Below are positions 38,905 to 41,085 of a stretch of DNA of 64,000 nucleotides, in pieces (position 1 is the first letter of the stretch; each line of letters opens with the position of its first letter). Under the pieces are notes generated by a model. That model worked only from the letters and a program-made list of their open reading frames with translations. It was not told where the DNA came from and did not search any database. This stretch comes from an uncultured Clostridia bacterium (GTDB taxonomy: Bacteria; Bacillota; Clostridia; TANB77; CAG-508): assembly GCA_944391855.1 (NCBI GenBank), contig CALXVB010000003.1:1-64000 (forward strand), in the 5' to 3' direction. Both the position numbers and the translations under genes were made by a program.

Positions 38905-39504
38905 TCTGTATTCTTCCTTTCTTTTAATATTTATTTTCTTATTTTATCCACTTCTAAAATAATATACATAAAATTTTATCACAAATTTTCAAAAAAGTAT
39001 AGACAAAATTTAAAAAATGTTGTATTATTGGTAGAAATTGGAAGGCGGTGTTTGAATTTACTATTCTAGATTTATTTTTCATATTTTTTATTATCCATCT
39101 TTTTATCAGTCTTTATTCAATTTATTTATTTTTCAATAATAAATTATTTCATAATTTACAAGGCGCAAAATTAAATTTAAAATCTAAACATTTTTCTAAT
39201 AAAAACTAAAAGAGGTGAATACTTTATTAGACGTTTACTATTTATTCTTATTTTTTCTTTTTTCTACTGCTATTTAGGCTATAAACTTTTTTCTGATATT
39301 ATTTATTCTAATTCAGTAATAATCCCCTATGGAATACACCCATTTGATATTTGTATTAAAAATCCTGATTTATGGAAATATATTAAAATTACTTTTGTTT
39401 TTACCTATATCTTTTCTTCCTTTATCATTTCTAATTCTTTTTATTTAATCCTGTCTTCTTTAAGTAAAAGAATAAAAGATAAAATTAGTAATTTTCCTGT
39501 AAAA

Positions 39505-41085
<1,581 letters not shown>

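Follow-up and report, generated by a model that had tools for sequence, protein, structure and literature searches.

AUU initiation behind an extended Shine-Dalgarno sequence as the probable start of a chromosomal type IV coupling-protein gene in uncultured Clostridia

We analyzed a 64,000-nucleotide stretch of DNA from an uncultured Clostridia bacterium (GenBank assembly GCA_944391855.1, contig CALXVB010000003.1, positions 1 to 64,000 of the forward strand), called the window throughout. In it, the gene for a VirD4/TraD-like coupling protein of a type IV secretion system (T4SS) lacks a canonical start codon ahead of its membrane anchor. The gene is very probably intact: translation would initiate at the AUU codon at 39226, behind an extended Shine-Dalgarno (SD) sequence, and yield a membrane-anchored product of 619 residues. 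SD-directed initiation at this codon is supported as the only reading that fits the comparative data.

More than 570 species carry the gene; for the comparison, we took about 70 orthologous loci from low-GC gut Clostridia and aligned their start regions codon by codon. In about two thirds of these loci, an extended SD is followed after 6-11 nucleotides by ATT, ATA or ATC (together ATH, or AUH in the mRNA) ahead of a conserved K/R-R/H pair and the first transmembrane (TM) helix. AUU initiation had been one option in an earlier reading of the window, made from its letters and open reading frames (ORFs) and called here the sequence-only reading; the alignment of orthologous start regions now supports that option.

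Start site of the gene in the window and its orthologues

The gene and its start region contain the following features.

39211-39218, plus strand: extended SD AGAGGTGA, of which the GAGGTGA part (39212-39218) pairs with the 16S rRNA 3′ tail
39226..39228, plus strand: ATT, candidate initiation codon of the coupling-protein gene; past the SD and ahead of the first TM helix, no other in-frame codon resembles a start
39226..41085, plus strand: coding sequence of the VirD4/TraD-like ATPase, 619 amino acids (aa), assigned by PF10412, tblastn and motifs
39235-39291, plus strand: first TM helix, hydrophobic segment at residues 4-22
39388-39462, plus strand: second TM helix, hydrophobic segment at residues 55-79
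39505..39507, plus strand: first in-frame ATG, the gene-caller start (protein P0002), which gives a 526-aa product without both TM helices
39772-39798, plus strand: Walker A motif GTIGTGKTS, residues 183-191
40588-40620, plus strand: Walker B-like motif VAFISDEYHEY, residues 455-465

The coupling-protein frame is open from 39181, directly after a TAA at 39178-39180, to its stop codon at 41083-41085, and within 39181-39507 the ATG at 39505 is the sole in-frame ATG, GTG, TTG or stop codon. The sequence-only reading had described both the frame opening after this TAA and the stretch from 39226 to 39505 free of canonical starts and stops, and a codon scan confirmed them. It had also placed two TM helices upstream of the first ATG, in agreement with the hydrophobic segments listed above and with AlphaFold, which models the anchor as helices 2-27 and 47-88 with a predicted local distance difference test score (pLDDT) of about 80.

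The ATT at 39226-39228 lies 8 nucleotides (nt) past GAGGTG, as that reading had correctly measured, 7 nt past GAGGTGA and 10 nt past the equivalent of the last G of GGAGG. The SD:anti-SD duplex energy of the gene is −11.7 kcal/mol, compared with a median of −10.15 kcal/mol for 38 canonical window genes; the SD of the window gene is good but not exceptional. A GTG at 39215-39217 is embedded in the SD and is out of frame in the window. Folding of 39171-39270 gave weak structure only (−4.6 kcal/mol), with no SD-sequestering hairpin evident in it, and an Rfam scan of 38300-39600 (E up to 1) returned two tRNAs only.

In the 38 window genes, in-frame ATG, GTG and TTG make up 2.9% of codons, and the run of 93 codons from the ATT to Met 39505 would be free of them by chance with P of about 0.06. 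Taken alone, this run is unusual and suggestive, not decisive; the weight comes from the comparison with relatives. Measured against eight orthologues, the 92 codons after the ATT have a ratio of nonsynonymous to synonymous substitution rates (dN/dS) of 0.12-0.30, and at positions 32-68 many residues are invariant across 16 aligned sequences. Because of this low dN/dS, the codons upstream of Met 39505 are judged to be translated, and the data indicate that the N-terminus, including both TM helices, is under purifying selection.

Across the aligned loci, the codon homologous to the window's ATT is ATT, ATA or ATC in 45 out of 72. A rule-based assignment of starts gave ATT in 32 loci, ATA in 12, ATC in 1, TTG in 10, ATG in 7 and ACG in 3, with 5 unassigned (3 in a second tally), and two further loci have an ATG without a detectable SD. 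The SD is strong and often extended in the relatives (GGAGGTG, AGGAGGTGA(T)), it is kept in all AUU/AUA relatives examined, and the spacer from SD to start is 5-11 nt. The first canonical in-frame start lies 28-172 codons past the AUH codon, at non-homologous places in different species. Lineages without ATH have another start-capable codon at the site or 1-3 codons upstream: ATG at or near it (L066, L070 and L072), TTG one codon upstream (L020, L023, L026, L028 and L043), or an ACG homologous to the ATT and 8-9 nt past a strong SD (L031, L034, L035, L046 and L080). In L035, a TAA two codons upstream leaves the ACG as the sole near-cognate candidate, and L034 and L080 have a second SD with a TTG further upstream.

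The GTG embedded in the SD is found in all three frames relative to the coupling-protein ORF, and in 10 loci a stop codon stands between the SD and the ATT or ATA (L015, L016, L025, L030, L032, L074, L077, L079 and L082) or the ACG (L035). In these 10 loci, no upstream or canonical start is possible. The GTG at 39215 was considered as a start and rejected on the same observations.

The closest relative, L002 (88% identity), reads AAAAGAGGTGAATTTCTTTATTAAACGT, and its gene call begins at the GTG of the SD (GTG AAT TTC TTT ATT). Between the GTG and the ATT, the window is 1 nt shorter than L002 (GTGAATAC versus GTGAATTTC), and consequently the GTG is out of frame and only the ATT is in frame in the window. 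The shorter junction is also present in L001, an independent contig from another sample that encodes P0002 and differs from the window at other sites, which excludes a random sequencing error. The indel between GTG and ATT thus appears to be tolerated, as expected of an untranslated spacer. Two circular HiFi genomes, L015 and L018, have ATT or ATC and no canonical start. In L032 and L079, an out-of-frame ATG lies 5 nt past the SD, and the two-codon mini-ORF that it opens (ATG AAT TAA) overlaps the ATT (AGGAGGTGTTTATGAATTAAACGT); this mini-ORF may act as a decoy or start-stop element, or it may have arisen by chance.

A neighbor-joining tree places the AUH starts in two deep clades; it also shows several switches to UUG, AUG and ACG and at least three separate AUG clades. 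The median SD:anti-SD energy is −13.2 kcal/mol for AUH loci (n = 41), −11.4 kcal/mol for UUG loci (n = 9) and −6.8 kcal/mol for AUG loci (n = 7), and SD strength differs with start class (Mann-Whitney p = 3e-5, phylogenetically uncorrected and computed with the standard anti-SD). These values indicate that SD strength scales inversely with start-codon strength, a pattern of compensation.

Several points weigh against initiation at AUU 39226, the phylogenetically uncorrected test being one. The anti-SD is assumed to be the standard Bacillota tail, there being no 16S gene within the window, and the rule used to pick starts presupposes an SD-directed start. Counted from the G equivalent to the last of GGAGG, the window's spacing of 10 nt is among the longest usually seen. 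At a genomic GC content of about 25%, ATT and ATA occur very often as codons, and for any one species it is not improbable to find one of them within reach of the SD. An Ile before K-R is also kept where an ATG lies upstream (M-N-F-I-K-R in L062 and L067), and conservation of the Ile codon could partly reflect the residue and not the start.

Upstream gene, related starts and precedents

Two features lie directly upstream of the coupling-protein gene.

39000..39028, plus strand: promoter-like element with −35 TAGACA (39000-39005), a 17-nt spacer and −10 TATTAT (39023-39028), matching 10 of 12 consensus positions
39048..39209, plus strand: small membrane-protein gene of 53 codons if read from the GTG at 39048, with a TM helix at residues 7-29, a basic tail and a TAA at 39207-39209

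The sequence-only reading had noted that this 53-codon ORF abuts the SD, as it does. An orthologue stands directly upstream of the coupling-protein gene in most examined loci, including the most distant. The small protein has the tail motif FHN.QGxKL.LK, within a longer motif (L-I-D-x-F-F-I...F-Y-S-I-Y-x-F-F...F-H-N-x-Q-G-S-K-L-x-L-K), and the ORFs of close species differ, among other changes, by several synonymous substitutions and a 9-nt indel that keeps the frame. The protein matched no family in Pfam or NCBIfam. The pattern of change indicates that the ORF is a real, conserved gene.

The promoter-like element is nearly invariant in five species with coupling proteins 79-88% identical, and we infer that it functions as a promoter. 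The intergenic block at 38960-39050 is about 90% identical between the window and L002-L005, above the identity of the coding sequence, and has no Rfam match. The promoter-like element and the small gene, rather than a known RNA element, account for the conserved leader.

The start of the small ORF is ambiguous in the window's subclade, where the GTG at 39048 lies inside an SD-like AAGGCGGTG. In 11 other loci (L019, L020, L023, L025, L028, L030, L043, L055, L060, L069 and L071), the small ORF appears to be initiated at ATA, ATT or ATC behind an SD-like GGAGGTGAT, with stops between. Automatic start classes for this ORF are unreliable (20 of 58 were unassigned and ATG cases were mis-scored), and only unambiguous loci with intervening stops are reported here.

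From the stop of the small ORF to the start of the coupling-protein gene, the distance is 16 nt in the window, with a median of 15.5 nt and a range of −14 to +122 nt across loci. In nine loci, the two genes overlap by −4 or −1: the −4 overlaps read ATAA in L029, L030, L033 and L042 and ATGA in L062 and L067, and the −1 overlaps read TAATT in L045, L065 and L077. The presence of ATA or ATT in place of the overlap ATG is further evidence that these codons are starts. Termination-reinitiation coupling from the small ORF to the coupling-protein gene is likely, judging from these junctions. Such coupling is known at ATGA and TAATG overlaps (PMC10666635, PMC2268962). The pairs described here share with them a short or negative gap between stop and start, an SD in the junction and, in relatives, the −4 and −1 overlaps; they differ in having ATAA or TAATT, with AUA or AUU for AUG, and in the window's gap of 16 nt. 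The coupling-protein frame relative to the small ORF is 0, +1 or +2 in 24, 11 and 23 loci, respectively, and this variability excludes a conserved frameshift or fusion.

Initiator tRNA pairs with AUU with a mismatch at the third position and initiates there at reduced efficiency, and initiation factor 3 (IF3) discriminates against AUH start codons. In the mechanism that we propose, initiator tRNA would read AUU 39226 and give a 619-residue protein beginning (f)Met-Arg-Arg-Leu-Leu-Phe. The weak codon would be selected through its position, 7 nt past GAGGUGA (39212-39218) paired with the 16S 3′ tail. The coupling-protein gene would be a second cistron, to which ribosomes terminating at the small ORF probably contribute by re-initiation. 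By analogy with known AUH-start genes, the coupling protein is likely to be made at a low, fixed level compared with its operon neighbors, and this output may be IF3-sensitive. In this scheme, how initiation proceeds chemically, whether it is coupled to the small ORF, how strongly the gene is expressed and whether it depends on IF3 are all inferred. As to purpose, one speculative possibility is that the start keeps the coupling ATPase scarce relative to the pilin and channel subunits.

A conserved near-cognate start behind an extended SD is a kind already known from infC, pcnB, ccpN and cvfC1. In S. aureus, infC, cvfC1, ccpN and citZ have conserved AUU or AUA starts, all with extended SDs, and about 10% of the output of AUG (PMC13009471). 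Overproduction of IF3 also inhibits re-initiation (PMC2268962). With infC (AUU; AUA in S. aureus) and E. coli pcnB (AUU), the coupling-protein gene shares a near-cognate AUH codon kept in one gene across many species; inefficient, IF3-discriminated initiation is a feature of those genes. Unlike infC, it encodes a secretion ATPase and not a translation factor, with no obvious autoregulatory loop, and its codon is less strictly fixed than in infC or pcnB, with lineages that have switched to UUG, AUG and ACG. With ccpN (AUA, in S. aureus and B. subtilis), cvfC1 (AUU) and citZ (AUA), it shares a Bacillota host, an extended SD that includes GGUGA and a start missed by gene callers. The starts of those three genes were mapped by retapamulin ribosome profiling and reporters, whereas the coupling-protein start is deduced from comparative genomics. 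In further contrast to them, the coupling-protein gene is an internal cistron that follows or overlaps an upstream gene, and several genes of one machine share the trait.

Within the literature that we searched, we found no paper that reports such a start in connection with coupling proteins or T4SSs. What is unusual here is the depth of conservation, the ATAA and TAATT overlaps and the fact that the trait recurs in five genes belonging to the same machine. These encode the small membrane protein, the coupling ATPase, a TrbL-like protein, a 94-aa protein and the TrsD-like half of VirB4, and each has an AUH start behind an extended SD in at least one lineage. Orthologues of the TrbL-like and 94-aa genes have ATA or ATT behind an extended SD with no nearby canonical start at L034:3611, L057:6584 and L066:8932.

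Among the long ORFs of the window that have a strong SD, only the coupling-protein gene and the TrsD-like gene are without a usable canonical start. Over the window and the fetched loci together, 22 of 466 long stop-to-stop ORFs combine a strong SD and an AUH codon with no canonical start within 25 codons; 21 are the coupling-protein gene and one is the TrbL-like gene of L034. Nineteen such cases occur among shorter ORFs: the small ORF accounts for eight, the TrsD-like gene for three, coupling-protein fragments and the 94-aa protein for two each, and four look spurious. No housekeeping neighbor is among the long- or short-ORF cases in the sampled neighborhoods, which hold a limited set of gene families. 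Within these neighborhoods, the AUH trait appears to be gene- and system-specific. A genome-wide habit of AUH starts was considered and rejected for the sequence at hand (the window and the locus neighborhoods).

The second window gene of this type is the following.

51797..52396, minus strand: TrsD-like gene that lacks a usable canonical start and corresponds to the N-terminal portion of a split VirB4

Its SD, AGAAAGGAGG, occupies 52396-52387 on the minus strand and is followed by an ATA at 52381-52379 after 5 nt and an ATT at 52378-52376 after 8 nt; a TTG at 52399-52397 abuts the SD on its 5′ side. The sequence-only reading had proposed that this gene repeats the arrangement of an SD, eight nucleotides and an ATT. 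The arrangement is real at 52376-52399, but the spacing is not fixed, given the ATA at 5 nt and spacers of 6-11 nt counted for this comparison in the relatives' coupling-protein genes. Most of 17 metagenomic relatives of the TrsD-like gene use ATG. In L083-L085, an SD that contains a stop (AGGAGGTGA) is followed by TATTTA and then ATT, which leaves no alternative start. The TrsD-like gene of L095 has an out-of-frame ATG AAA AAT AAT with the look of a poly-A indel.

Competing explanations

Some readings dispense with an AUU start altogether. The gene could be a pseudogene or a phase-variable gene, created by a 1-nt frameshift past an ancestral GTG (GTG AAT TTC becoming GTG AAT AC). This GTG is indeed in frame in the closest relative, and the window's 1-nt indel comes right after it; however, the GTG has no SD of its own, being itself part of one, it occurs in all three frames, and stops intervene in 10 loci. 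The rest of the ORF is intact, its N-terminal codons appear to be under purifying selection and the same arrangement recurs in an independent strain, and we regard this explanation as very improbable. The smallest chance of all falls to a sequencing or assembly error, with a true sequence one base longer and a normal GTG start. Most relatives are short-read metagenome-assembled genomes and the site is AT-rich, which would favor such an error, but the difference from L002 is TTT versus TA and no homopolymer slip, the independent assembly of L001 has the identical junction in another sample, and the HiFi genomes agree in lacking a canonical start; the indel suspected in the sequence-only reading is thus not borne out. 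Translation could instead begin at Met 39505 and give a soluble, anchor-less protein, with 279 nt upstream left untranslated. Met 39505 is the first canonical start and the gene callers' choice (P0002, 526 aa), but no SD precedes it, the 92 codons upstream have the low dN/dS and many invariant residues described above, and the first canonical start of the relatives falls at non-homologous places. The relatives keep both TM helices, and the soluble form that the sequence-only reading had envisaged is highly unlikely. An equally slim chance attaches to a programmed frameshift or read-through by which ribosomes would pass from the small ORF, or from the out-of-frame GTG at 39215, into the frame of the coupling protein. 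In its favor, the stop of the small ORF directly adjoins the SD, the pairing of an internal SD with a stop recalls the +1 site of prfB, and the mini-ORF with an out-of-frame ATG in L032 and L079 overlaps the ATT. Against it stand the three relative frames and the gap of −14 to +122 nt, a required shift that is opposite in the window (−1) and L032 (+1), and the lack of a conserved slippery motif, with most loci having no out-of-frame canonical start within reach of the SD. The fusion to the GTG ORF suggested earlier also conflicts with that ORF being a separate, conserved membrane protein.

Other explanations accept the AUU start and concern its meaning. The AUU or AUA start could be real but purposeless: AT mutation pressure would erode ATG in low-expression genes and the SD would compensate, with expression under stabilizing selection. 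We give this explanation a substantial probability, somewhat short of an even chance. The trade-off between start codon and SD strength across lineages fits both this explanation and a functional start. Several switches on the tree among AUH, UUG, AUG and ACG agree with erosion, as do the position of the T4SS genes in the most AT-rich part of the window (GC 0.15-0.23 at 48-54 kb) and the drift-like, sporadic AUH starts in five genes of the system across lineages. On the other hand, AUH has been retained in one gene across two deep clades at about 40% protein divergence, no housekeeping neighbor in the same genomes shows an AUH start, and other low-expression genes should be hit too. The studied S. 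aureus cases also do alter output, with condition dependence in one of them (PMC13009471). AUU and AUA starts could also form a shared translational gate on the whole chromosomal T4SS-like machine of the clade (probably TANB77), which we consider rather unlikely. If such a gate existed, assembly of the machine would respond to the balance of IF3 and IF2, and hence to growth state, and subunit stoichiometry would be fixed by coupled re-initiation at the ATAA and TAATT junctions.

Genomic setting and significance

The assignment of the protein to the coupling-protein family rests on a match to PF10412 (TrwB_AAD_bind) of 25.7 bits against a cut-off of 20.5; matches to PF12696 and to the TraD family TIGR03743 are weak and below their cut-offs. 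Searched by tblastn, the protein shows 25-30% identity, at E values as low as 8e-51, to plasmid proteins whose annotations name a T4SS DNA-binding or TraM-recognition domain. A profile search of PDB sequences with the coupling protein gave no match, a cluster look-up of NCBI-held homologues returned no names, and the AlphaFold model built from 16 close homologues has a mean pLDDT of 46, too poor for a fold search. Like VirD4, TraD and TrwB, the protein has an N-terminal pair of TM helices ahead of a P-loop ATPase that bears Walker A and B motifs, and its gene likewise lies near pilin-like, TrbL/VirB6-like and VirB4-like genes. It differs from them in being very divergent, at 25-30% identity to the plasmid coupling proteins and with no solved structure matched in sequence. 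Unlike the genes of conjugative coupling proteins, the window gene is chromosomal and lies in the replication origin region, with no relaxase among the window ORFs.

Downstream of the coupling-protein gene, the operon contains the following genes.

41103-41450, plus strand: T4SS pilin-like gene, ATG start, strong SD AAGGAGGT
41466-42362, plus strand: TrbL/VirB6-like gene (TrbL_3-like), TTG start, strong SD
42365-42649, plus strand: 94-aa membrane-protein gene, with an ATG 12 nt from the SD and an in-frame ATA at 6 nt and ATT at 9 nt

Past the 94-aa gene, the operon extends through DnaD-like and DnaI-like genes. The window covers the origin region of the chromosome, with rnpA, yidC, jag and mnmE on the plus strand and dnaA, dnaN, recF and gyrB on the minus strand. 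A second T4SS block, between gyrB and gyrA, encodes the TrsD-like N-terminal half of VirB4, the VirB4 ATPase, a ParA-like ATPase and a protein of unknown function; VirB4 is split there into two ORFs, the TrsD-like part and the ATPase part (49801-52381). The GC content of this block is 0.15-0.20 at 48001-52000, compared with 0.24-0.31 elsewhere.

A blastn search of the region against plasmids gave no match; the locus is chromosomal. No relaxase family matched any ORF in the 64 kb examined. Among the uncultured low-GC Clostridia in GTDB, more than 570 species representatives carry the coupling-protein family; Clostridium sp. CAG:273 (GTDB: TANB77/CAG-508) is one of them, and genomes of 1.6-1.7 Mb are the source of two of the loci. 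In the window, the stretches concerned are 39000-52400 and 52820-63692. The core-chromosome location, the split VirB4, the lack of a relaxase in the window and the occurrence in more than 570 species point to a non-conjugative or otherwise unusual role of the machine. A conjugation role of the coupling protein is not established, the gene being chromosomal and present in more than 570 species, with no relaxase in the window. The published TANB77 "pilus" cluster was considered as a candidate for this locus and rejected, that cluster being of the Tad type (CpaF, TadB/C).

Gene finders accept only ATG, GTG and TTG as starts. Among the 120 closest database representatives of the family (P0001-P0120), 44 are miscalled: 33 lack the first TM helix, nine contain part of it and two lack the anchor region. 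Most of the other database calls appear to begin at a GTG that belongs to the ribosome-binding site. The N-terminal truncations in the family are gene-caller artefacts of the non-canonical start, and predictions of topology, structure and function for the family inherit this error.

Examples of an AUU/AUA start that a single gene retains in many species are few. The start of the coupling-protein gene would be one of them, accompanied by clear SD compensation and by the ATAA/TAATT overlaps, and it would extend the pattern recently mapped experimentally in S. aureus to uncultured gut Clostridia. In conjugative T4SSs, VirD4-type coupling proteins affect pilus production versus DNA transfer (PMC13463995). 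If dosage matters here too, a weak coupling-protein start beside a strongly translated pilin gene would be a plausible way to set their ratio. The probable host clade, TANB77, is of current medical interest (PMC11680825).

Elsewhere in the window, a nonribosomal peptide synthetase gene at 12549-19994 on the plus strand encodes a protein of 2481 aa with two condensation, two adenylation and two carrier domains and a terminal reductase, and a gene for an AMP-binding enzyme lies at 10696-12402 on the opposite strand.

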